This document shows, piece after piece, positions 2,246 through 42,795 of a DNA stretch of 64,000 bases. The stretch covers positions 51,137 to 115,136 of the forward strand of contig NZ_BIXY01000010.1 in NCBI RefSeq assembly GCF_008326305.1, in the 5' to 3' direction. Within the stretch, counting starts at the first letter, position 1. Each line of letters opens with the position of its first letter. A program made the translations under genes and the position numbers. The stretch is from Dictyobacter arantiisoli (GTDB taxonomy: Bacteria > Chloroflexota > Ktedonobacteria > Ktedonobacterales > Ktedonobacteraceae). The notes under the pieces were generated by a model. The model made no database searches, had not been told where the DNA came from, and saw only the letters and a program-made list of their open reading frames with translations.

Positions 2246-2716
2246 ATGGCTCGCTTGATAGCATTGGATGTAGGGGATGCACGCATTGGAGTAGCATCCT
2301 GCGATTCAACAGGTTTTTTGGCCTCACCGCATAGCACCATCCACGTCACACGCAACGAACAACAAACCTGGGAGTCGATCCAAGCCGTCATCGAAGACAT
2401 TGAGGCTGAAGGGATGATCGTGGGGTTGCCAATCAGTCTGGATGGGCAGATTCATGGGCAAGGGCAAAAGGTTCAAGCCTTTGTGGAACGCTTAAAAGCC
2501 CATATCTCTATTCCCGTCACCTTCTGGGATGAGCGCCTCTCAACAGTTGAAGCCCAACGCCTTCTTTCACAACGCACCCAGGGTAAAGGGGAGAAACATG
2601 CCCAACGCGGTGGTCGGCAACGCGCCCAGGGGAAAAAACGTCGCAGTAGTCAGGAAATTGATGCGCTGGCCGCAGCAGTGATTCTGCAAGACTACCTGGA
2701 TCATCTGGGAAATTAA
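2246..2716 (+). CDS. ruvX: YqgF/RuvC-like Holliday-junction-resolvase-family nuclease (pre-16S rRNA nuclease)
   Basis: N-terminus MARLIALDVGDARIGVASCD is the classic YqgF signature. Good RBS AGGAAATAGGAA upstream. Followed by mltG, the conserved yqgF-mltG pairing. Confidence 0.85.
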   Translation: MARLIALDVGDARIGVASCDSTGFLASPHSTIHVTRNEQQTWESIQAVIEDIEAEGMIVGLPISLDGQIHGQGQKVQAFVERLKAHISIPVTFWDERLSTVEAQRLLSQRTQGKGEKHAQRGGRQRAQGKKRRSSQEIDALAAAVILQDYLDHLGN

Positions 2717-2736
2717 CACATAAGGGATAATGACGC

Positions 2737-3837
2737 ATGAGACGACGACCTAATTCACGAGCAGCTATTCTCTCAGTCCTGGTTGTAGGATTGATTGTTT
2801 TTATTGGAGTCATTCAGGTCTGGAATATTGCTTCGGATATTTTTCAACCCGCCAGTTCGAACGCCAAAAATGTCTCTATCAATATCCGGCCTGGAGAGAC
2901 CACGACCGAAATCGCCAATGATCTGCAACAAAAAGGGATCATTCGCAACGCTCTCGCCTTTACAATCTGGACACGCATTAAGGGCACTAACCTGGAAGCG
3001 GGCGTCTATAAAAAGATCAATGCCAGCATGACCATCAGCAATATTATCGATACCCTGCAAAATGGACAGCCTGATGAGCTATTGGTAACGATACCCGAAG
3101 GTAAGCGGCTGGAAGAAATTGCCAGGATTGCGGCTGCTTCAAATCTGCCAAATTTCAAAAAGGCAGACTTTTTGAACTATACCCGCAATATCAAAAACTT
3201 TCCCGATGCCAGTAAGTATCCTTTGCTTCTCAGCAGCGTGCCCGCTGGCAAAAGCATGGAAGGACTGCTCTTCCCCGATACCTATGAATTGTTACCCACA
3301 ACGACTGCACGCGGCCTCATCAACGTCATGCTGACAGAGATGACAACCAGTATTACTACCAATCATCTTGCCCAGCAAGCTAAACAGCACAATATGGATC
3401 TGTATAGTTTCTTGACGCTGGCCTCAATCGTGGAGCGTGAAGCAGGCAAGCACGACGATAAAACAAAAATTGCCAGTGTCTATTGGAATCGACTCTATAC
3501 TGATGTAGGACAAGCAGCAACCAGAAATCTTCTTCAGGCTGATCCAACTGTGCAATATGCCCGTGACACAGAAAGTCCTCCCACTGGCGCATACTGGCAA
3601 CCGTTAGCGAATTCCGGTGGCAATATTGCAAAGGATAGTCCCTGGAATACCTATGTTGCAACAGGACTGCCCCCGACCCCCATCTGTAGCCCTGGCCTTA
3701 AGAGCTTAATGGGTGCCGCAGATCCTGCGCCAACTCATGATCTCTATTTCTTTGCCGCCAATGATGATGGGAAAACCTATTACTTCTCGGACCTGAATGC
3801 TTTCAACGCAGCTTTGCATCAACATGGCAACAACTAA
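2737..3837 (+). CDS. mltG: Endolytic murein transglycosylase MltG (YceG family)
   Basis: N-terminal TM anchor, then a YceG-like domain of ~366 aa. Conserved neighbourhood downstream of yqgF. Confidence 0.75.
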   Translation: MRRRPNSRAAILSVLVVGLIVFIGVIQVWNIASDIFQPASSNAKNVSINIRPGETTTEIANDLQQKGIIRNALAFTIWTRIKGTNLEAGVYKKINASMTISNIIDTLQNGQPDELLVTIPEGKRLEEIARIAAASNLPNFKKADFLNYTRNIKNFPDASKYPLLLSSVPAGKSMEGLLFPDTYELLPTTTARGLINVMLTEMTTSITTNHLAQQAKQHNMDLYSFLTLASIVEREAGKHDDKTKIASVYWNRLYTDVGQAATRNLLQADPTVQYARDTESPPTGAYWQPLANSGGNIAKDSPWNTYVATGLPPTPICSPGLKSLMGAADPAPTHDLYFFAANDDGKTYYFSDLNAFNAALHQHGNN

Positions 3838-3873
3838 GAGCACTCGATCAAATATTAAAGAGAGAAACATAGA

Positions 3874-4776
3874 ATGGACTTAATGAAAATCATCCAGACG
3901 CTGGTGCTGGCACTCCTGCAAGGGGTGACCGAGCTCTTTCCCATTAGTAGTCTGGGTCACACGGTGATTCTACCTGACTTAATCGGTTGGGGTGATTTGA
4001 CGGGGGGTACGGCCTGCGGCGGAAAAAGTTGTTTCTTGCCGGTGGTCGTGGCCCTGCATCTGGGCACCAGCATCGCGCTGATCATCTATTTCTGGCGCGA
4101 CTGGCTTCAGGTCATCAGGACTTTACTCACGACTGCACGCACACGCAAGGTTAGCAAAGGGACCAATGAGTGGGTCAGTTGGATGATCATTATCGGTACC
4201 CTGCCCGCTGGCATCTTGGGAGTACTGCTCAAAAGCAAGCTTGAGGCGTTATTTTCCTCACCCCTGCTTGTTTCTGCCTTCCTGATCATGAATGGCTCGC
4301 TTCTCTTCATTGGCGAGGCCCTGCGCCGGCGTGCTGAAGCCAACTTGCTTACGTTTTCAGCCAAAGAGCGCGAATCAAAATTCCGTTCACTCTCCTCACT
4401 CTCAATTAAAGAGGCTTTACTGATCGGTCTGGCCCAATCAGTAGCCTTGATTCCTGGCTTCTCACGCTCCGGCTCAACGATTGTGGCTGGCCTGGCTGTC
4501 CGTCTGACACATGAGGATGCTGCTCGCTACTCATTCTTGTTAGGCACACCGATCATTTTGGCTGCCGCCGTACTCGAAGTGCCCGCTCTCTTTCATCAGA
4601 CCGCATTTCCATTCTGGCTGATCATCCTGGGTATGGTCGTTTCGGGCATTGCAGCCTATGTGAGTACCGCTTTCCTGACCAAATATTTTGAGAAGGGACG
4701 CCTCGATCCATTCGCATACTACTGCTGGATCGCCGGTATTATTTCCATCGTTCTCTTCCTGACAGTACGTGCTTAA
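3874..4776 (+). CDS. uppP: Undecaprenyl-diphosphate phosphatase (BacA/UppP)
   Basis: Motif LQGVTELFPISSLGH and GFSRSGSTI. Multi-TM protein of ~300 aa. Confidence 0.85.
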   Translation: MDLMKIIQTLVLALLQGVTELFPISSLGHTVILPDLIGWGDLTGGTACGGKSCFLPVVVALHLGTSIALIIYFWRDWLQVIRTLLTTARTRKVSKGTNEWVSWMIIIGTLPAGILGVLLKSKLEALFSSPLLVSAFLIMNGSLLFIGEALRRRAEANLLTFSAKERESKFRSLSSLSIKEALLIGLAQSVALIPGFSRSGSTIVAGLAVRLTHEDAARYSFLLGTPIILAAAVLEVPALFHQTAFPFWLIILGMVVSGIAAYVSTAFLTKYFEKGRLDPFAYYCWIAGIISIVLFLTVRA

Positions 4777-4796
4777 TTACTAGCTTCCGATCCTCC

Positions 4797-4852
4797 AAAA
4801 GACCAGGAAGGCCATCAATGCATGATCACATTGATGGCCTTCCTGGTCTTTT
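4797..4852. terminator. Bidirectional intrinsic terminator: 24-bp perfect inverted repeat flanked by A/T runs, between the convergent uppP and fmt
   Basis: aaaagaccaggaaggccatcaatg / catgatca / cattgatggccttcctggtctttt. Confidence 0.7.
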
Positions 4853-29224: not shown

Positions 29225-31192
29225 GTGGCAACAAATACAACCAATACAAAACGGCCACGCAGTAGTCTGGATAAGTCAATCGATCTGGGTATGGACCAGT
29301 TTGGCCGCTTCTTACGACGAGCCTGGATCTGGCTTGCCCTGCTCGCGCTGGTTATCTGGTTCTTTGCCTCAGGTACGACGGTGGCAGGTATTGATCCTAT
29401 CACGGCTGTGGGTCTTTTGCTGCAAATTATGTTTGCCATCTTCTTTGTGCTCGTACAATTTATCGCGATTTTCTGGTTTCTAGGAAGACCCCGTCTCTAC
29501 TGGGTGATGCCCGGTGAAACAGGTGTAACCTTCGAGGACTATAAAGGGAATCCAGAGGTGCTTGAGTCGGCACGGCGCATTGTCACGCTACTCCAGGGGG
29601 TCAAAGAATTCCAGCAGATGGGCGGAAATCCTATTCGCGGTTTGCTCCTTTCTGGACCGCCGGGAACCGGGAAGAGCTATCTGGCACAATGTATGAGTAC
29701 TGAGGCCGGGGTACCCTTTGCCTATGCCAGTGCATCCAGTTTTAAAGCTATGTTCATGGGTATGGATGTACTGATGATCAGCAATCTCTATCGCAAAGCA
29801 CGCCGCCTGGCACGCGAATACGGTGGTTGCGTGGTGTTTATGGATGAAATTGATGCAATTGGCACGGCACGCGGCGCAAACGGTCCCACGATGGGCATGG
29901 GCGGTGGCATGATGGGCGGAATGATGGGTGGCGGCACAGGTGGGCTCAATCAGCTCTTGATGGAGATGGACCCACCAAACATCGAGACAGGTTGGTTTAA
30001 GAAGATCCTGCGTACGCTTGGCCTGACGCATGGCCGCGTACAAAACGAGCCGGTTCTGACCGTCGGAGCGACGAACCTGCCTGAAGCCCTCGATCAAGCT
30101 CTACTGCGGCCCGGGCGCTTTGATCGTCAGATCCATATTGCGGCCCCAACTGATAAATATCGTCCCGAAGTGATTGAGTATTATCTCCATAAGATTGAGC
30201 ATGAGCCAGACATCTCTATCAGCGCGCTTTCCGCACGGCTGGTCAACTATACACCGGTCGCCATTAAGCACGTTATCAATGAAGCGACTATCATTGCCCA
30301 CTTTGAAGGCCGTCAAAAGGTTACCTACAAAGATCTGATTGAGGCCCAGGATGTACATGAGTATGGCCTGCGCCAATCGAGCGAACTGACAGAGATTGAA
30401 CGCCGCCGTCTGGCCTATCATGAAGCCGGACACACGGTCGCCAGTTACTATCTGATGGATCGCTACTTCCCGGCCTATGTGACGATCCATATGCGGGGGG
30501 ATGTGGAAGGTGCCGCTGCCTTTGCCCATCCACGACCAAAAGAAACGGTGATCACGCATAACCGGGAAGATATCCTGGCTCGTATACAGGTCTCACTGGC
30601 CTCACGGGCCGCTGAAGAACTCTTCTTGAATACCAAACTCAGTGGTGTGACAGGAGATTTCCAGAGCGCGACACAACAGGCAGCCCTCTATATCGGTGCC
30701 TACGGCATGGATAATACCCTGGCCTCGATTCTGGCAATGCAGAGTACCAATGGAGCCCTCGGCAATATACCACGCTTCTCAGAGCGCGTCGAAAGTTTGC
30801 TTCAATCGCAGCTTAATGCTGTCAAGCAACTCTTCCTTGAACATAGCGAGGCGCTGATCGCGGTCGCCGAAGCACTGATCGAAAAGGACGAGTTAGTCAC
30901 GGAAGAAATCAAAACGTTGATCGATAATGCGGATGCACGGCGCGTGGCGCAGAACCTCTTTGGCGAGCTCACCCCTTTACCGAGTATCGACAGTGGTCAG
31001 AATAGCAACGGCAATAGCGAGCATAATACGAGCAATGGACGTGCACAGGGAACAGGCCATCTGGCTGAACCACATATCCTGAACAATACACTGCCTGATG
31101 GGACACTACAGTTCCCGATGTCCTCGCTGAATGGGTCCGGTTTTATAGAAACATTTGATTATCCAGACAATCCTGAATCACCTGCCCTATAA
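29225..31192 (+). CDS. Divergent FtsH-family AAA+ zinc metalloprotease paralogue
   Basis: Two TM helices with only a short loop between them. Walker A GPPGTGKS, Walker B VVFMDEID, SRH LLRPGRFDRQ, zinc motif HEAGH. GTG start with RBS AAGGGA. A Gly/Met-rich insertion (GMGGGMMGGMMGGG) lies between the Walker B and SRH regions. Confidence 0.8.
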   Translation: MATNTTNTKRPRSSLDKSIDLGMDQFGRFLRRAWIWLALLALVIWFFASGTTVAGIDPITAVGLLLQIMFAIFFVLVQFIAIFWFLGRPRLYWVMPGETGVTFEDYKGNPEVLESARRIVTLLQGVKEFQQMGGNPIRGLLLSGPPGTGKSYLAQCMSTEAGVPFAYASASSFKAMFMGMDVLMISNLYRKARRLAREYGGCVVFMDEIDAIGTARGANGPTMGMGGGMMGGMMGGGTGGLNQLLMEMDPPNIETGWFKKILRTLGLTHGRVQNEPVLTVGATNLPEALDQALLRPGRFDRQIHIAAPTDKYRPEVIEYYLHKIEHEPDISISALSARLVNYTPVAIKHVINEATIIAHFEGRQKVTYKDLIEAQDVHEYGLRQSSELTEIERRRLAYHEAGHTVASYYLMDRYFPAYVTIHMRGDVEGAAAFAHPRPKETVITHNREDILARIQVSLASRAAEELFLNTKLSGVTGDFQSATQQAALYIGAYGMDNTLASILAMQSTNGALGNIPRFSERVESLLQSQLNAVKQLFLEHSEALIAVAEALIEKDELVTEEIKTLIDNADARRVAQNLFGELTPLPSIDSGQNSNGNSEHNTSNGRAQGTGHLAEPHILNNTLPDGTLQFPMSSLNGSGFIETFDYPDNPESPAL

Positions 31193-35141: not shown

Positions 35142-35618
35142 CAAGAAGAAAATTCAAATAATGACTCTATTTCTTGCCACTTTAAGAAGGGTTCAAACGT
35201 ATAAAAATACAGATGGATTACATCCCTGTTAGGTTTTCCTAAGAAAATGACGCCAAATCCAGGCCATTGGGACTAGAATGAAAGGGTGACTTGCGTTATA
35301 ATTGAGGTAGGGATCTCGTTCCCTGACTCACTGGCAACGATATTGTCTTATCCACTGGTTGGCAATTATCGGTGGCATTGTATGCGCTCCGCACAGCGTT
35401 AGCAGAAAGAGGCATGGTGTGCCATAAGAATGAGGAATAAAATTCGCTCGGGCGATGTTTCTACCAGTAGAGACAAGATGCATGTCATTGATTTTCCTCC
35501 CACTCGGTTCGGACAGAAGGGTCCGGTGAAGGCTCGCTTTCTCTGAGTGTTGGACCAAACTGACTACGAACAGATATCTTGCTGCTTAGGATATACTACT
35601 TTTCATGGAGGGCGCACA

Positions 35619-36851
35619 ATGATAGACACAAAGCGTGCCATGACGGGAACAACGCTTACCTTACATAAATCGCATAATGCAGATCTAGAGAAGCCTTACG
35701 ACATTGTCGAAAAGTTGCTGACCAAAGATCTTGACTATACATCAGAGGATGATGTGGAAGTTGACACTGGCAAAGACGATCATGAGTTGGATGACGATTT
35801 GAACGGAGTGGATACAGGTTCACTCGATATCGAGACCGGACCATTGGAATTAGAAGATTTAGTTGATTCCGAAATCCATGACGGAGCCACAACTTCTGAT
35901 CTGGAAGTCGATGCAACGATCACAACTCCTACTAGCCATGCTGATGAAGAGACACCGGCCCGCCGTACCGCTGCGCGCCGTCGCCGCTCCGAAGATCAGG
36001 ATGATAATCAAGTAAATTCTGCCGATGCCGGTGAATCCGACGCGGTGATGACCTATTTGCGTGAAATCGGTCGCGTTCCTATGATTTCCCATGAACGCGA
36101 GGTTGAACTGGCGCAACGCATCGAATCTGGTGATCGCGATGCAATGAAGCAGTTTATCCTGGCAAATCTACGCTTAGTGGTCAGCATTGCCAAACGCTAT
36201 GTTGGTCGCGGCCTGACTTTGCTCGATCTTATTCAAGAAGGCAATATTGGTCTCATTCGTGCGGTACAACGCTACGATTGGCGTCGCGGACATCGCTTCT
36301 CGACCCATGCAACCTGGTGGATTCGCCAGGCAATCAGTCGAGCTGTGGCAGATAAAGGACGCACGATCCGCCTTCCCGTCTATGTAAACACCGCCTTGAA
36401 CCGTATCCGTCGCGAACGTCAGCGCCTCTTGCAGGAACTTGGTCGCGAACCAACCGAGATGGAGTTAGCCGAAGCAACAGGACTTGATCCTATTCGCATG
36501 GTAGAGCTTCAGTCAGCTCCCGGAGCCCCTGTTTCTCTTGAGCTACCAGTCGGCGAAGATGAGGAGCAGGAATTAGGTGATGTGCTGGCAGATACCGAGT
36601 CCTCATCTCCAGAAGAACTGGCTACCACTCAGACATTAAAGGATGAGGTGCAACGCGTGCTCGAATCGGTGCTGACGCCCCGTGAACAGTTGGTATTACA
36701 GTTGCGCTTTGGTCTTGGAAATGGACAAGCCCATCCGCTAGAGCAAGTTGGTCGCGAACTGGGAATTACGCGTGAGCGTGTTCGTCAGATCGAGGCTGGC
36801 GCGCTGGCCAAACTCAGACAGCCACCTGTGTTGGAACGCCTACGGAGCTAA
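35619..36851 (+). CDS. rpoD: Primary (group 1) RNA polymerase sigma-70 factor
   Basis: Regions 1.2 to 4.2: [26 protein letters not shown], the rpoD box [18 protein letters not shown], and region 4 [13 protein letters not shown]. The start is set at ATG 35619 with RBS GGAGGG. Confidence 0.85.
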
Positions 36852-36961: not shown

Positions 36962-39472
36962 TTATTTACGTTGTCCGAGGTCACGGGCAACGTGGGTAAC
37001 TCCTTTGATGCGCTCCAGTTTGCTAAAGAGTCGATGCAATTGATCGAGATCGTCAATTTCTAATGTCGCCATGATCACGACGGTCTGATGATTGGTGCTG
37101 ACATTAGAATTGATTGACATCAGATTAGCCCCTGCATCAGAGACGACGGTCGCAACATCCCGTATCAAGCCAGTACGATCATTGGCAGTAATGACGACTG
37201 GAGCATTATAGCGCAATGGTCCCATGCCAGCCCAATTGACGTGGATCAGGCGTTCACGATCCTTTTCCCCTAAGCGAGCAACGTTACGACAATCAGAACG
37301 ATGAACGATAACGCCTTTACCTCGACTAATAAAGCCAACAATATTGTCATCTGGCAATGGATAGCAGCAGTTGGCGAGGCGCGTCAAGAGCCCGCTGACA
37401 CCCGCCACCTCTAATTGAGCAACAGCCTGTTTGCTCGGCGTAGCGGCTGGCAGAGAGATGTTTCCTTCAGCCTCCCTCGCATCCTTGTCTTTATCTTTCT
37501 CCCGATGGTCACGCTGCCAGTATTCCTGCAATTTGACAATAACGGCACGTGGTCGGAGATCATCCGCGCCAATAGCAGCCAGAAGATCATCGAATGAGTC
37601 AGCATTCAGACTGCTACAAACCCAATTTTCAGCATCCTCACTAATCGAGGAAGCATCGCGCGTCCCCAGTGCTTTTAACTCGCGCTCCAGACGTTCCTGT
37701 CCAATCTGGATATTGATTGGTCGCTCATTGATTTTAAGATAGCGCCGAATCTTATTACGAGCCGCAGTAGTACGTGCGGAATTTAACCAGTCGCGTGTTG
37801 GATGAGCACTACGGCTGGTCACAATATCGACAATCTCACCGTTTTTTAGCTCATAGTTCAGTGGTACCATACGCGATACCAGACGATCACCGCTTCCATC
37901 CCCATCCGAAGAAATGATACGCGCACCCGAACAATGATCCCCAATCTTCGAGTGGATGCGATACGCAAAGTCCAATGGTGTCGAACCAACCGGTAGATCT
38001 TTGACCTCACCCTTGGGCGTCAAGACAAAGATCTGTTCTTGAAAATAATCATCCTTGACCGCTTCCACAAACTCGGTATCACTGGCATTGGCGATGCGTA
38101 GATCTTGCTGCCATTCCGTCAGTTGACGCAGCCAGGTTAAGAGTTCTTTCGCCGAAGCCGAAGCCGTATCCCCCACATCTTTATAGTGCCAATGCATGGC
38201 GACCCCATATTCGGCTGTCTCATGCATTTCATGGGTGCGAATCTGAATCTCTACCAACTGATCGTCCAGGCAGAAAACAGTGGTATGCAACGCACTATAT
38301 CCATTGGGTTTAGGATTGGCGATAAAATCTTTAATACGTCCTTCCTTGGGACGCCAGAGGCTGTGTACATGCCCCAGGGCCACATAACAGTCTGTAGTGG
38401 TGTCAACCAGGATACGGAATGCCAGCAGGTCATGGATCTGGCTGATATCAAAAACAGCTTTTAAGCGTTCAAAATCAGTATCATCCTCGCCAATGCGCAC
38501 AATCTTTTTATAAAAGCTGTATGGATGCTTGACGCGTCCAGAGATTTCCGCTGTGACACCCAGCGAAGCCATTTCGGACCGCAACCTATCACAGACACGT
38601 TCAACATACGAACGCCACTGCTTTGTTTCCACATCCAGCGTATTGCGTACCCAAATGTAGCGATCAGGTTCGAGAATTTGAAAGGCCAGATCCTGTAGCT
38701 CACTCTCCACCAGAGACATACCCAGACGGCCAGCCAGAGGCGCATAAATCTCACGTGACTCCTCGGCCATCGTCAACATCTCTTGTGGATCGCCATGATA
38801 GTCTTGCTGACACATCAAACGCATAGCATGCAAGCGATATGCGAGCTTCAATAAGACGACGCGAGGATCATCGGCCATCGCCACAAACATCTTGCGGACA
38901 GTTTCGGCCTGCTGGCGACGCATAGCCTCACGTACACGTGGCTTCTTACTTTCTAAAGCAGACAGCGTCCCATCATCATCACGCTCGTTATAGGCTTTCT
39001 TTGACGACGAGAGTTGTGTATTCTGAATTGCCAGTATAGCGCCAGTAGCGGCATTCTGTTTTTTGCGTTCCAGGATATTGAGGCGTAGCATGCTTTCTGC
39101 GATACGTGCTGTAGCTGCTCCCAACACATACTCAACCTGTTCAATCAATAAAAGTTCAGCGTCAACAGCCTCATATACCAGACCAGCAGCGATTCCAATG
39201 GAATCAACATGCATCATCTGTGCCATAATAGTCGTCACAGCCAGTGCATGATCCAGAGGAGCAATTGGACGAGTGGGATTGCCAGGAACATCCTGGCACG
39301 TTTCTCGGGTAAGCTGAAAAGCTTTTACCACATAGTCCACCTCAGCTGGCGTCATATAGTGACGAACCAGCGAGAGTAATTGCATCATCGCAACCGGATA
39401 AGGAGGCTCAGCAAATTGTTGTTCTACAGACCTATCTATCATAATTCTTTTACGGCCATATGACATATCCAA
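36962..39472 (-). CDS. Long RelA/SpoT homologue, RelA-like: synthetase motifs intact, hydrolase HD motifs degenerate
   Basis: Synthetase motifs GRVKHPYSFYKKI, RPKEGRIKD, HTTV, EIQIRT, YGVAMHWHYKD are conserved. The hydrolase region has PLDHALAV...GLVYEAVD in place of HP...LLHDVVED. TGS, Cys-Cys zinc-finger and ACT C-terminal domains are present. Confidence 0.8.
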   Translation of the reverse strand: MDMSYGRKRIMIDRSVEQQFAEPPYPVAMMQLLSLVRHYMTPAEVDYVVKAFQLTRETCQDVPGNPTRPIAPLDHALAVTTIMAQMMHVDSIGIAAGLVYEAVDAELLLIEQVEYVLGAATARIAESMLRLNILERKKQNAATGAILAIQNTQLSSSKKAYNERDDDGTLSALESKKPRVREAMRRQQAETVRKMFVAMADDPRVVLLKLAYRLHAMRLMCQQDYHGDPQEMLTMAEESREIYAPLAGRLGMSLVESELQDLAFQILEPDRYIWVRNTLDVETKQWRSYVERVCDRLRSEMASLGVTAEISGRVKHPYSFYKKIVRIGEDDTDFERLKAVFDISQIHDLLAFRILVDTTTDCYVALGHVHSLWRPKEGRIKDFIANPKPNGYSALHTTVFCLDDQLVEIQIRTHEMHETAEYGVAMHWHYKDVGDTASASAKELLTWLRQLTEWQQDLRIANASDTEFVEAVKDDYFQEQIFVLTPKGEVKDLPVGSTPLDFAYRIHSKIGDHCSGARIISSDGDGSGDRLVSRMVPLNYELKNGEIVDIVTSRSAHPTRDWLNSARTTAARNKIRRYLKINERPINIQIGQERLERELKALGTRDASSISEDAENWVCSSLNADSFDDLLAAIGADDLRPRAVIVKLQEYWQRDHREKDKDKDAREAEGNISLPAATPSKQAVAQLEVAGVSGLLTRLANCCYPLPDDNIVGFISRGKGVIVHRSDCRNVARLGEKDRERLIHVNWAGMGPLRYNAPVVITANDRTGLIRDVATVVSDAGANLMSINSNVSTNHQTVVIMATLEIDDLDQLHRLFSKLERIKGVTHVARDLGQRK

Positions 39473-39770
39473 GAGGGACTGTCCGGTATATTGACTCAGT
39501 ATAAAAATACCTGCTTCGAGTTGTTGATACTACCAGGCAACAACCTACAATCATCTCCCCACAGTAGTATACGTACCACAATGCATCTTGTTGGATGAGT
39601 TTGTACTTTTGGTGAACAAAATGAAACATCCATATGCGTCACTCTAATGCACACTATACATTTTCGCACATTCACAACGCGTGCTTCTCACAATAAAAGT
39701 GGAATTACATCCTGCTGTTATGGGGATGGGGGCACTCGATTGCGACGAATGCCCCCCAATGGCAGGAGCC

Positions 39771-42230
39771 TTATTTTCCTGGTGCGCGCTCAACACTGAC
39801 AACCGTTTTGACCTGGCGCAAACGCCGTAAAATACGCTCCATCTGATCCACAAATGCTCCGGCGTTCGCCGCAATCTCAAGTGTCGCGGTAATCACTGCT
39901 TTCTGCGAAGCAGGATTTGTGGTTGAGGTCACAGATACCATATTGATACCCGCATCGGTTACCACTGCGGCAACATCGCGCAAAAGGCCCGAACGATCAT
40001 GAGCCACCAGCGTAATGGCAACCAGATAGTTCTCGGGATGAATCTGTTGCCAGCTAAATTCGATCAAGTGATTGGCTGTATCTGGATTGCGATGCAATTG
40101 CTCACAATCACAACGATGAATCACAACACCTTGATCACGGGTCATCTGTCCTACAATCGCATCCCCAGGAACGGGACAACAACAGCGGCCCAGTTGCAAG
40201 GGGCTGGCCTTTTCTCCATCTTTATGTGGATAAAAACTATTCTCGTTCTCGTCACTCTCTTCACAGGGTGGAAGTTGCTCCTGTAAAGGAGTAAGGACCT
40301 GTTCGACCTGCACATCTTCGCGGCCCAGAGCCACATAGATATCTTCAAGCATACTGTATTTCTTGGAGAGCAACAATGAACGCGGCTCTTCAATATACAG
40401 TTGATATAACAGGCTTTCAACCAATTCATTTAAGCCGGCCATACCCGCTGTCTTCAAGGCGAAGTCTAACCGTTCACGTCCCAGTTGCAAGTTGATTTCG
40501 CGCTCATACGTTTTAAGATAGCGCCGAATCTTATTGCGGGCCGCCGCCGTACGCGCAAAGGACAGCCAATCCCTGGTCGGGTGAACGGTCCGATTGACCA
40601 TAATCTCGACAATTTCGCCGCCCTTAAGCTCATAATCCAACGGCACCAGACGTGTCACCAGATGTCCACTATCATCAGTATTGGTAATGATGCGTGCACC
40701 AGCGCAATGATCGCCAAGATCAGTGTGAATGCGATAGGCCATATCCAGCGGAGTTGAACCACGCGGCAAATCCTTGACCTCTCCCTGTGGAGTAAACACA
40801 AAGATCTGCTCCTGGAAGATATCACCCTTGACCGCCTCAACGAACTCATCCGCACCTTGTGGCAAGGCACGTTGCCACTCGCGCAATTGCTCAATCCACG
40901 TCATCATCTCGCGATAGGAGAGACGCCAGCTTCCTGGTTTTGCCTCATCATGCTCATTTTGTTCTTTATCGGCGTGCCCCATACGTTCTTTAAGGAACCA
41001 GTAACTGGCGATGCCATAATCCGCAGTACGTTGCATATCATAGGTGCGAATTTGAATTTCAGCCAGACGATTCTCCAGACAAAAGACCGTCGTATGGAGG
41101 GATTGATAGCCATTCAGCTTGGGGGTCGCAATAAAATCCTTAATGCGTCCATCCTTTGGACGCCAGAGGGCATGGATGTGCCCCAGGGCCAGATAACACT
41201 CATAATCCGAGTCCACCAGAATGCGGAAAGAGATCAGATCGTGGATCTGACTCAACTCATTGCCGTTCAGCTGGGCGGGCACATCTTCCAACTTGCGGTT
41301 AATACTGGCGAGATGTTTCTGCCATGCCAGCACATCGGCGTGAATGCCCGCGCGTCTCATCTCATCGCGCAGCACTCGACAGACCTCGGTGATAAATGGC
41401 ATGCGTCGTTTCACCTCTTCAGCCACCTGTTTCGCCAGTTTGACATATTTTTCAGGCTCAAGATAGCCAAAGGACAGATCTTCAAGGTCAGCCTGCACCA
41501 GGGACATCCCCAGGCGACGGGCCAGAGGGGCATAAATCTCACTGGTCTCGCGCGAAGTATTCTGTTGCTGCGCGGTAGACATCGCGCCCAGCGTGCGCAT
41601 ATTATGCAGACGATCAGCCAACTTTACCACCACCACCCGTGGATCTTCAGCCATTGCCAGCAGCATCTTACGCACCGTCTCTGTTCGAATACGGCGTTTA
41701 TCAACCAGCGAAGGAGGAACACCTGCGGTCAGAGTGGCTTGATCCTCAACTGCAGTGCTGGCGCCTTCCTGCCCTGATTTCGCGGGCTTTGTACCGGCGA
41801 GCGTATCAAACTTCGTCACCCCATCCACAATATGGGCTACAGAGGAACCAAATTGCTCACGCAGATCTTCAAGTGAATACTCAGTATCTTCAACTACATC
41901 ATGGAGGAGTGCAGAGACAATACCATCCGCATCGATACGCATTCCAGCAAGCAGTAGGGCTACCTCCAACGGATGTTGAATATAAGGTTCGCCAGAGCGT
42001 CGCAAGGCCCCCTTATGTGCACGATGCGCTAAATCGTAAGCACGCTGAATCTTCTCCATGTCTTCTGGAGTAAGGTATTGCCGTGTCTCAGTTAACAAGT
42101 CCTGGATCGTCATACGCGACTGCGTGACTTTCGCTCCCATAGTCATTGTGGTGCGTACCATAGGAACAATCGCCTGCGTATCACTGGATTTATCGGACTC
42201 ATCAGCAATTTTGTCGAAATTGGTAGCCAT
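39771..42230 (-). CDS. Long RelA/SpoT homologue, SpoT-like: hydrolase HD domain intact, several synthetase motifs diverged
   Basis: Hydrolase HRAHKGALRRSGEPYIQHPLEVA...LLHDVVEDT is intact. The synthetase GRxKHxYSIYxKM motif is replaced by AWQKHLASINRKL and AHWxYKE by ASYWFLKE, while RPKDGRIKD, HTTV and EIQIRT are retained. Confidence 0.8.
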   Translation of the reverse strand: MATNFDKIADESDKSSDTQAIVPMVRTTMTMGAKVTQSRMTIQDLLTETRQYLTPEDMEKIQRAYDLAHRAHKGALRRSGEPYIQHPLEVALLLAGMRIDADGIVSALLHDVVEDTEYSLEDLREQFGSSVAHIVDGVTKFDTLAGTKPAKSGQEGASTAVEDQATLTAGVPPSLVDKRRIRTETVRKMLLAMAEDPRVVVVKLADRLHNMRTLGAMSTAQQQNTSRETSEIYAPLARRLGMSLVQADLEDLSFGYLEPEKYVKLAKQVAEEVKRRMPFITEVCRVLRDEMRRAGIHADVLAWQKHLASINRKLEDVPAQLNGNELSQIHDLISFRILVDSDYECYLALGHIHALWRPKDGRIKDFIATPKLNGYQSLHTTVFCLENRLAEIQIRTYDMQRTADYGIASYWFLKERMGHADKEQNEHDEAKPGSWRLSYREMMTWIEQLREWQRALPQGADEFVEAVKGDIFQEQIFVFTPQGEVKDLPRGSTPLDMAYRIHTDLGDHCAGARIITNTDDSGHLVTRLVPLDYELKGGEIVEIMVNRTVHPTRDWLSFARTAAARNKIRRYLKTYEREINLQLGRERLDFALKTAGMAGLNELVESLLYQLYIEEPRSLLLSKKYSMLEDIYVALGREDVQVEQVLTPLQEQLPPCEESDENENSFYPHKDGEKASPLQLGRCCCPVPGDAIVGQMTRDQGVVIHRCDCEQLHRNPDTANHLIEFSWQQIHPENYLVAITLVAHDRSGLLRDVAAVVTDAGINMVSVTSTTNPASQKAVITATLEIAANAGAFVDQMERILRRLRQVKTVVSVERAPGK

Positions 42231-42660
42231 TCTCTAATACCTGCTACTACATGCTGTACCATCTGCCCATACCTGTTGGAGAGTTGGCGAGCTTTTTACA
42301 ATGCCTGTTACGATAAAGTGTTCCCTCTCGAGAGATTTACTCGCATAAAAGAGCGTCTCTACATCTGGGAACACTTACATCCAGGCAAAAGTGATGTTAC
42401 TTCTCTATTATAAGGAGCAAAGTGAGACTGTCAAGCAGATACTATACCACTTACGTTGAAGAAGGGGTAAAAAGAGGACATTCAGGTGTAGTGACGAGGT
42501 ACAGATTATTTACTTCATCTATTTCAGATGACAGATACAGGCTCGCTGTTATTCCCGAATCGGCAAAAGTAGACGCTTTACACATAATTCCGGATCTTTC
42601 CTGTACTTTTACCATCCGGCTAGATCGTGGCCTTATCCACCCGGACAAATGTCCAATCCC

Positions 42661-42756: not shown

Positions 42757-42795
42757 AAAAAGGCTTAGCTAAGAACACACCTTAGCTAAGCCTTT
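42757..42795 (-). terminator. Intrinsic terminator (minus-strand sense) for the zinc-ribbon gene
   Basis: 15-bp stem aaaggcttagctaag/cttagctaagccttt followed by a U-run on the minus strand. Confidence 0.65.

Follow-up and report, generated by a model that had tools for sequence, protein, structure and literature searches.

Tandem genes for long RelA/SpoT homologues in Dictyobacter arantiisoli and other Ktedonobacteria: a predicted synthetase and hydrolase pair that probably arose independently of RelA and SpoT

The presence of two adjacent genes for long RelA/SpoT homologues (RSHs) in the genome of Dictyobacter arantiisoli, a soil-dwelling member of the Ktedonobacteria (Chloroflexota), raises the question whether synthesis and hydrolysis of the alarmone (p)ppGpp have been divided between two enzymes in this bacterium and whether such a division is related to that of the proteobacterial RelA and SpoT proteins. 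The genes are located in a 64-kb stretch of contig NZ_BIXY01000010.1 (positions 51,137 to 115,136), here called the window, to which all coordinates refer. A sequence-only reading of the window had proposed that the upstream gene product, P1, is a SpoT-like enzyme with diverged synthetase signatures, that the downstream gene product, P2, is a RelA-like enzyme with a degenerate hydrolase domain, and that the pair arose independently. A comparison with orthologues and reference enzymes makes it likely that a bifunctional rel gene was duplicated in tandem and that labour was then divided between a P2 synthetase and a P1 hydrolase.

The open reading frames (ORFs) and domain sets confirm that two complete long RSH genes are arranged head-to-tail on the minus strand (Table 1). 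P1 consists of 819 amino acids, starts with ATG and is 100% identical to the Dictyobacter arantiisoli protein P0121. The P2 frame comprises 836 amino acids when counted from the first TTG, and the public protein P0001, which is 100% identical to P2, has a length of 826 amino acids. Because of the length of P0001 and because the start context ATGATAGATAGG at 39442 is unchanged in seven related genomes, the true start of P2 is probably the ATG at 39442. The spacer between the two genes would therefore measure 328 bp and not 298 bp. According to Pfam, each protein carries the full long-RSH set of HD_4, RelA_SpoT, TGS, AH/RIS and ACT domains; the HD family PF01966 was matched in P1 and gave no match in P2. 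Both proteins are long RSH members according to TIGR00691 (605 bits for P1 and 527 bits for P2, with a cut-off of 499) and they share 40% identity along their full length. No further RSH domain was detected by tblastn in the window besides those of P1 and P2.

Residue states were scored in an alignment of 68 P1-type and 77 P2-type orthologues with five reference enzymes, namely RelSeq, B. subtilis Rel (6YXA), M. smegmatis Rel (8FR8) and the RelA and SpoT proteins of E. coli MG1655. The references were aligned with MAFFT, and residue numbers are those of RelSeq unless stated otherwise, the N-terminal sequence of RelSeq having been verified against PDB entry 1VJ7. All motif strings quoted in the sequence-only reading are present in the translations, and an alignment shift as the source of the divergent motifs was rejected, as the motifs remain in register with the five references and their states are constant across the 68 and 77 orthologues.

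The hydrolase site of P2 is destroyed by the substitutions R44G, H77Y (phenylalanine in most orthologues), D78E, E81D, D82A, D144Y and N148A, and none of the 77 P2 orthologues retains the RelSeq residue at any of these positions. The states H77F/Y, D78E, E81D and D144Y occur throughout the family, and alanine is found in 72 orthologues at position 82 and in 65 at position 148. P2 is devoid of three of the four Mn2+ ligands (H77, D78 and D144) as well as of the catalytic E81-D82 pair. The sole hydrolase residue that is usually kept is H53, with which the histidine of 'PLDHALAV' aligns; the loss of HD residues that had been read from this string applies to the substituted positions and not to H53. 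The synthetase (SYNTH) signatures of P2 are kept, as had been proposed: G240, R241, K243, K251, D264, R269, R295, D298, Y308, H312, E323, Q325 and H342 are intact in 77/77 orthologues, and K297 is lysine in 74 and arginine in three of them. The corresponding motif is RxKD (R379-I-K381-D382 in P2) with invariant arginine and aspartate, and the ExDD motif of monofunctional RelA is not present. The histidine of the TGS domain that is equivalent to H432, the residue of RelA that reads the 3' end of the tRNA, occurs in all 77 P2-type and all 68 P1-type orthologues. For P2, the residue states predict a RelA-like [hS] enzyme that only synthesises and whose HD domain is catalytically dead. The loss of hydrolase function appears to be complete and old, and the pseudo-HD domain presumably persists in a regulatory role, as in RelA.

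The hydrolase domain of P1 is as perfect as had been stated, since R44, H53, H77, D78, E81, D82, K141, D144, R145, N148 and T151 are kept in 68/68 orthologues. With this fully intact site P1 is predicted to be SpoT-like, and the two proteins form the proposed RelA-like and SpoT-like pair as far as their sequences allow this to be judged. The SYNTH domain of P1 is altered at three prominent positions. Position 240 is alanine in 55 of the 68 orthologues and otherwise valine, proline, serine, phenylalanine or threonine, and glycine in none; position 241 is tryptophan in 60, arginine in six and serine in two; and position 342 is tyrosine in all of them (H342Y). These changes are accompanied by Y246A, Y249N and Y345L in P1, and among the orthologues by alanine or serine at position 246, mostly asparagine at position 249 and leucine or methionine at position 345. 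In the numbering of P1, A302 aligns with G251 of E. coli RelA, W303 with R241 of RelSeq and Y410 with H354 of RelA. The mutations H344Y and G241E of RelMtb are synthetase-null, a statement for which a literature search yielded no relevant paper. According to a statement in PMC4154780 that cites Gropp 2001, the G251E mutation abolishes (p)ppGpp synthesis by E. coli RelA and H354Y lowers it. In the proven-inactive pseudo-SYNTH domain of A. baumannii SpoT (SpoT-Ab), the counterpart of RelSeq R241, a nucleotide-coordinating arginine, is one of several residues that have disappeared (PMC9974481). K243, K251, D264, R269, R295/K297/D298, K304, N306, Y308, H312, E323, Q325 and R327 are intact in 65-68 of the 68 P1 orthologues, and D331, E391 and Y375 (P1 numbering) are retained in P1. 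With respect to the SYNTH residues that are lost in SpoT[Hs] (D272, Q347, R249, R277 and Y329 in RelTt numbering), P1 lacks the R249 equivalent only. The residue changes suggest that (p)ppGpp synthesis by P1 is probably weak or absent.

The constraint on both copies was compared by computing the mean pairwise identity among orthologues over the same 67 genomes for P1 and P2. The values are 0.72 for P1 and 0.63 for P2 in the HD region, 0.82 and 0.80 in the SYNTH region, and 0.90 and 0.81 in the TGS region. By these values, the pseudo-HD domain of P2 evolves somewhat faster yet remains constrained, as expected of a regulatory pseudo-HD domain like that of RelA. The SYNTH domain of P1 is remodelled and not decaying, its odd residues being fixed and its catalytic core preserved. 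Of the 'reciprocal decay' that the sequence-only reading had seen in the pair, the half concerning the hydrolase site of P2 is borne out, whereas the other half is better described as remodelling of the P1 SYNTH domain. As a synthetase, P1 is probably compromised and, in some lineages, no longer functional. The P1 orthologue of locus L038 carries K251Q, K297E and D298N. A deep metagenomic lineage (L083) possesses the same tandem with a gap of 5 bp (L083:296-2383 followed by 2389-4839). Its upstream copy of 695 amino acids has an intact HD site and a SYNTH domain with R241H, R269T, E323D, Q325H and loss of the HW motif, and the residue states of its downstream copy are those of a dead HD and an intact SYNTH site. 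The upstream copy of L083 looks like a later stage toward a hydrolase-only enzyme.

The origin of the pair was investigated by means of bootstrapped neighbour-joining trees with simple distance corrections. The sample of 172 sequences included 138 library representatives, 12 P1-type and 12 P2-type orthologues from Ktedonobacteria, the two window proteins and, as references, RelSeq, B. subtilis Rel, M. smegmatis Rel and E. coli RelA and SpoT. In the full-length tree, the P1 family together with P0280 is the sister group of the P2 family together with P0243 and P0244, and all three nodes have a bootstrap support of 100%. The sisterhood was recovered with 92-96% on the SYNTH domain alone and with 94-100% on the C-terminal domains (CTD) alone and is therefore not due to the decayed domains. 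E. coli RelA and SpoT as well as all ExDD-type representatives (approximately 25) are placed outside of the clade, in accordance with the independent origin that the sequence-only reading had suspected. By raw identity, the P1 family comes closest to the P2 family, and vice versa, in the linker, TGS, AH/RIS and ACT regions. The tree was enlarged to 289 sequences with 117 proteins related to the nearest single-copy outgroup, including Rel from Thermoflexus, Limnocylindrales and further Chloroflexota; the support for the clade was then 80-83% on both the full-length and the SYNTH+CTD alignment, and no other sequence was found within it.

Additionally, the two families are linked by shared derived features. 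P1, P2 and the deep P2-like sequences contain 'TTVFCL(D/E)' where the five reference enzymes have a 'G-P-x-G' turn, and an insertion of 8-11 residues in the TGS domain is common to both families and missing from E. coli RelA and SpoT. A long insertion in the alpha6-alpha7 loop is present in P1, P2 and the nearest outgroup P0249, a single-copy Rel protein without a tandem partner that is probably a Chloroflexota Rel. P1 and P2 are lineage-specific Rel duplicates (Rsh-type in the sense of Atkinson 2011), as they are sisters with a single-copy Rel as nearest outgroup. Since RelA and SpoT fall outside of this sister pair and since the pair shares indels, the duplication appears to have arisen within this Chloroflexota lineage and independently of the proteobacterial event. 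Two artefacts were considered. Long-branch attraction was addressed by restricting the alignments to single domains or domain sets, by gamma correction of the distances, by ranking raw identities and by adding Chloroflexota outgroups. The sisterhood held on the full-length, SYNTH and SYNTH+CTD alignments, and the support on the CTD alone dropped to 60% with the nearer outgroups. Recent gene conversion between P1 and P2 is unsupported, the two families being reciprocally monophyletic across genomes.

With one genome scanned per species, 80 loci were obtained. The informative names among them are all those of Ktedonobacteria (Ktedonobacteraceae, Ktedonobacterales or a named genus, these being Dictyobacter, Tengunoibacter, Ktedonobacter, Ktedonosporobacter, Ktedonospora and Thermogemmatispora), and the other metagenome-assembled genomes (MAGs) bear the generic labels Chloroflexota or 'Chloroflexia'. 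The P1-type gene is located directly upstream of the P2-type gene and on the same strand in all 71 loci that yielded both genes, which extend from Dictyobacter to Thermogemmatispora and comprise a deep uncultured lineage; the remaining nine are contig-end or frameshift cases. The spacer in the 71 loci ranges from 15 to approximately 890 bp, with a median of approximately 190 bp, and does not exceed 50 bp in 14 of them. The neighbour order, consisting of a zf-Tbcl gene, P1, P2, a convergent sigma-70 gene and then tgt and lplA, is kept in 33-39 of the 42 fully flanked loci. The tandem, which the sequence-only reading had treated as a single locus, is conserved across the class and ancient, and its synteny indicates a core chromosomal locus and not a mobile module.

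The division of labour that is favoured here would have begun when a bifunctional ancestral rel was duplicated in tandem, in a lineage from which the Ktedonobacteria and one or more related uncultured lineages descend. P2 would act as a synthetase-only stringent factor with an intact synthetase site and C-terminal domains sensing tRNA and the ribosome, and its dead HD domain would survive as a conserved regulatory pseudo-HD domain. P1 would be the long-RSH (p)ppGpp hydrolase of the cell that resets the signal. Its SYNTH-like domain would be kept by purifying selection, probably because it serves to control the hydrolase allosterically, as in SpoT-Ab (PMC9974481). On a speculative note, the hydrolase-first tandem would couple a potentially toxic synthetase genetically to a hydrolase, and this would be useful because unopposed synthesis of the RelA type is toxic (PMC7229694; PMC9974481).

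Several observations weigh against this scenario. P1 keeps both essential acidic residues, D264 and E323, along with Q325, K243, K251, R269, the RxKD motif, Y308 and H312; the G240A change of P1 is milder than the null mutation G251E of RelA, and H354Y only lowers the activity of RelA. The SYNTH domain of P1 is as conserved among orthologues as that of P2, and R241 is still present in six P1 orthologues (L021, L041, L025, L027, L035 and L052), all of which possess Y342. P1 may thus still make (p)ppGpp, as E. coli SpoT does. With regard to P2, its motif is RxKD, whereas monofunctional RelA typically has ExDD. The trees are of the neighbour-joining and not of the maximum-likelihood type, their outgroups were sampled from matches to P2 and P0249 and not to P1, and the CTD-only support for the clade falls to the 60% given above with nearer outgroups and to 13% once the divergent upstream copy of L083 is included. 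With the median spacer length given above and 328 bp in Dictyobacter arantiisoli, co-transcription is no more than possible, and an extra, truncated RSH is present approximately 7 kb from the pair in one related MAG.

The arginine at position 241 of the six P1 orthologues may represent a reversal from tryptophan (TGG to CGG or AGG), as deeper branches carry W241. Five of these six loci have short gaps between the P1 and P2 genes, the exception being L052.

The most serious alternative, which we regard as possible although doubtful, is an asymmetric specialisation as in E. coli, with a synthetase-only P2 and a bifunctional P1 whose weak but relevant synthetase activity is tuned by A240, W241 and Y342. 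It draws on the conservation of the P1 SYNTH domain and the mild effect of RelA H354Y, on the core residues, including K304, N306 and R327, that are retained in 65-68 of the 68 orthologues, and on the fact that the proven-dead SpoT-Ab and the upstream copy of L083 have lost catalytic residues that are still present in P1. The changes themselves speak against it: the nucleotide-coordinating R241 is replaced by tryptophan in 60 and the invariant glycine of GRxKH in all of the 68 orthologues, H342Y is universal, and Y246A, Y249N and Y345L occur alongside. Moreover, the P1-type proteins of L038 and L083 decay further, which fits a relaxed catalytic constraint.

An unlikely but more novel reading would be a repurposed active site in P1 that is neither dead nor just weak. 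It could differ in the donor or acceptor it uses or in what it makes, for example another alarmone, or it could be a dedicated nucleotide sensor that gates the hydrolase. Such a site is conceivable because A240, W241 and Y342 are fixed, the core (D264, E323, Q325 and the G-loop residue Y308) is kept and purifying selection is as strong as on P2. If this were true, the repurposed site and the class-wide hydrolase-first tandem would constitute a distinct, hard-wired two-gene alarmone circuit and more than a replay of the RelA/SpoT split.

That Proteobacteria supplied relA, spoT or both by horizontal transfer is highly improbable in the light of the trees, even though the best PDB match of P2 is E. 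coli RelA (419 bits) and the NCBIfam models distribute the two proteins in the same way. P2 scores 461 bits with the RelA model NF008124 and 422 bits with the SpoT model NF008303, whereas P1 reaches 404 and 487 bits, respectively; the equivalog cut-offs of 728 and 947 are attained by neither protein, and a loss of conservation at the HD site would by itself give P2 a higher score against RelA models. P2 and E. coli RelA also have F, D and A in common at positions 77, 81 and 82 (position 77 as in most P2 orthologues), which is best read as convergence. A transfer is opposed by the RxKD motif of P2, by the sisterhood of P1 and P2 in SYNTH-only and CTD-only trees with RelA, SpoT and the ExDD-type representatives outside, by their status as mutual nearest neighbours in all non-decayed domains, and by the shared FCL motif, TGS insertion and alpha6-alpha7 insertion, the latter also found in P0249. 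When 1.84 billion representative proteins were searched exhaustively with P2, the scores fell sharply, from 620 bits to 507, at the border between its own family and generic long RSHs, and no donor lineage was apparent beyond the P2 family.

A toxin-antitoxin-like or defence module, in which P1 would check a growth-arresting P2 synthetase as in SAH-toxSAS operons, has very little probability: the hydrolase-first order of the ATfaRel-FaRel operon (PMC7229694 and preprint), the very short spacers in 14 lineages and the toxicity of unbalanced RelA activity (PMC7229694; PMC9974481) are outweighed by the full length of both RSHs with their ribosome- and tRNA-sensing C-terminal domains and conserved TGS histidine, by the presence of the pair in all 71 sampled loci long enough for both genes, by the core synteny with tgt, lplA and the sigma-70 gene, by the fact that no mobile-element signature was noticed at the locus, and by the lack of any other long RSH seen as a housekeeping enzyme, the whole genome not having been searched for one.

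The tandem duplication with division of labour can be compared with four known systems. The first is RelA[hS]/SpoT[Hs] of the Moraxellaceae (Acinetobacter baumannii; PMC9974481, PMC3153485), a complete reciprocal split (PMC3153485). It likewise involves paralogous long RSHs that both possess all domains: in one copy HD is dead and SYNTH intact, and in the other HD is intact and SYNTH is non-canonical although kept as a conserved domain; P1 too is without the nucleotide-coordinating arginine (RelSeq R241, corresponding to RelTt R249). The Moraxellaceae pair stems from a separate duplication, as the Ktedonobacteria copies are sisters outside RelA and SpoT. P1 keeps the catalytic D264 and Q325 that are lost in SpoT-Ab (D272S and Q347T), and P2 has RxKD instead of ExDD. 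The E. coli system resembles the pair in combining a synthetase-only stringent factor that carries a pseudo-HD domain with a hydrolase-dominant partner, and in the F, D and A states of RelA. In contrast to the adjacent P1 and P2 genes, relA and spoT of E. coli are approximately 0.9 Mb apart; P1 and P2 are not orthologous to RelA and SpoT, as indicated by the equivalog cut-offs, and the SYNTH site of SpoT is canonical (G, R and H all present) whereas that of P1 is altered.

Lineage-specific duplications of rel outside the beta- and gamma-proteobacteria are known as RshA, RshB, RshC and RshD, of which RshB of the Bacteroidetes has an HD domain that diverged in a RelA-like manner (Atkinson et al. 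2011, PMC3153485), and the Bacteroidetes Rel/RshB pair has been studied experimentally (PMC6994654). That pair belongs to another phylum and a separate event, and both P. gingivalis copies make ppGpp; tandem linkage and a remodelled SYNTH domain in the partner are not mentioned in PMC3153485 or PMC6994654. With these published cases (PMC3153485, PMC9974481, PMC6994654), the description of the split as a beta- and gamma-proteobacterial innovation in the sequence-only reading was overstated. SAH-toxSAS operons such as ATfaRel-FaRel (PMC7229694) share the position of a hydrolase gene immediately upstream of a synthetase gene and differ in that they encode single-domain small RSHs on patchily distributed toxin-antitoxin loci, whereas P1 and P2 are long RSHs at a core locus. 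In the survey by Atkinson et al. (2011), the sampled Chloroflexi, which did not include Ktedonobacteria, had only a single Rel[HS] (PMC3153485). The 13 long-RSH subfamilies of Jimmy et al. 2020 appear, as far as the figure legend tells, to be the 11 subfamilies from 2011 together with RickSpo and RickRel. A literature search yielded no relevant paper that ties Ktedonobacteria to ppGpp or the stringent response, and the 2020 RSH classification could not be checked genome by genome. As far as searched, the P1/P2 pair is an undescribed instance of a well-described evolutionary pattern, distinguished by its class-wide tandem linkage, by changes in both copies and by a remodelled yet conserved SYNTH domain in the hydrolase copy.

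The general principle of RSH splitting is already established, and the pair adds an example that leaves this picture unchanged. The RelA/SpoT split appears to have been replayed here independently and long ago, in a distant phylum, and the pair thus offers a natural experiment on the repeatability of subfunctionalisation. The loss of the same HD residues, with the F, D and A states of E. coli RelA, and the retention of the dead domain are repeated features, while the ExDD motif and the choice of the synthetase residues that change were not repeated. P1 and the upstream copy of L083 look like two stages on the way from a bifunctional SpoT-like to a hydrolase-only enzyme, and the conserved hydrolase-first tandem could serve to probe whether genetic coupling protects from alarmone toxicity. 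Ktedonobacteria are mycelial, spore-forming soil bacteria rich in secondary metabolites, and the control of development by (p)ppGpp is well studied in actinomycetes; it would therefore be of practical value to know which gene makes and which gene breaks the alarmone.

Table 1. Coordinates of the P1/P2 locus within the 64-kb window (aa, amino acids).
Feature	Position	Strand	Basis
P1 long RSH gene, 819 aa, hydrolase-intact, SpoT-like, remodelled synthetase site	39771..42230	-	ORF, Pfam, TIGR00691
P1 HD (hydrolase) domain, aa 64-242; HDVVED at 41886-41903	41505..42041	-	Pfam, codons verified
P1 SYNTH domain, aa 305-416	40983..41318	-	Pfam, alignment
P1 A302 and W303 (ATP motif), just 5' of SYNTH domain	41322-41327	-	codons verified
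P1 Y410	41001-41003	-	codons verified
P1 C-terminal regulatory region: TGS aa 476-544, partial AH/RIS match, ACT/RRM aa 733-815	39786..40805	-	Pfam
P1-P2 spacer	39443..39770	-	328 bp
P2 long RSH gene, 836-aa ORF, predicted hydrolase-dead, synthetase-intact, RelA-like	36962..39472	-	ORF, Pfam, TIGR00691
P2 pseudo-HD domain; YEAVDA in place of HDVVED at 39158-39175	38717..39295	-	alignment, codons verified
P2 AYRLHA in place of ADRLHN	38825-38842	-	alignment, codons verified
P2 SYNTH domain, aa 312-432, RxKD motif, catalytic and substrate-binding residues kept	38177..38539	-	Pfam, alignment
P2 C-terminal regulatory region: TGS aa 481-552, full AH/RIS aa 567-730, ACT/RRM aa 754-830	36983..38032	-	Pfam
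Candidate promoter of P1 (possibly also of P2), TTGACA-16-TATAAT	42407..42434	-	12/12 consensus match

With respect to transcription, the candidate promoter listed in Table 1 is a perfect match, by consensus only, that is located approximately 175 nt 5' of the P1 ATG, and a consensus scan of the coding strand detected no terminator-like site between P1 and P2. A block of the spacer, CCAACA-N(about 17)-ACGTATACT at 39560-39600 on the minus strand (alignment columns about 240-272), is kept among genomes of the Dictyobacter group and may be an internal promoter of P2. The idea of a riboswitch or RNA leader, be it within the spacer or 5' of P1, was rejected, as there is no Rfam match within the 64-kb window and the spacer is only patchily conserved.

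Two further loci deviate from the simple tandem. In lineage L088, a deep P1-like gene (L088:770-2923) that encodes P0392 (717 amino acids, V240/W241/Y342) is followed by a short-chain dehydrogenase gene and by no P2-type gene on a contig of only 5.6 kb; the tandem of this lineage is broken or its P2-type partner lost. The extra RSH-like ORF of the Ktedonobacteria MAG mentioned above is located downstream of the pair at L057:20234-21976 and comprises approximately 580 amino acids. Its HD motif is dead (…VNPPLPQ…, …LAERLYFMK…) and its synthetase motifs are intact (GRAKHIYGIYKKM, EIQIRT, EHWRYKD); the TGS domain is present, the ACT domain is absent, and the truncated protein is 31% identical to P1. 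This ORF suggests that some relatives carry extra predicted synthetases.

The gene directly upstream of P1 (42927-43232, minus strand) encodes a double treble-clef zinc-finger protein of 101 amino acids (zf_Tbcl and zf_Tbcl_2) that is 87-94% identical in five listed examples and syntenic in 39/42 loci. A palindrome with a 15-bp stem is present at 42759-42795, between this gene and the promoter-like site of P1. On the other side of the pair, a group-1-like sigma-70 gene (35547-36851, plus strand; regions 1.2, 2, 3 and 4) is convergent with P2, an arrangement that was found in 36/42 loci, and its product bears an acidic, low-complexity N-terminal extension of approximately 160 amino acids. Further away, the ORF at 29225-31192 on the plus strand is FtsH-like (AAA and Peptidase_M41), with Pfam scores that are weak for the family (E about 1e-25), and may encode a divergent FtsH paralogue.

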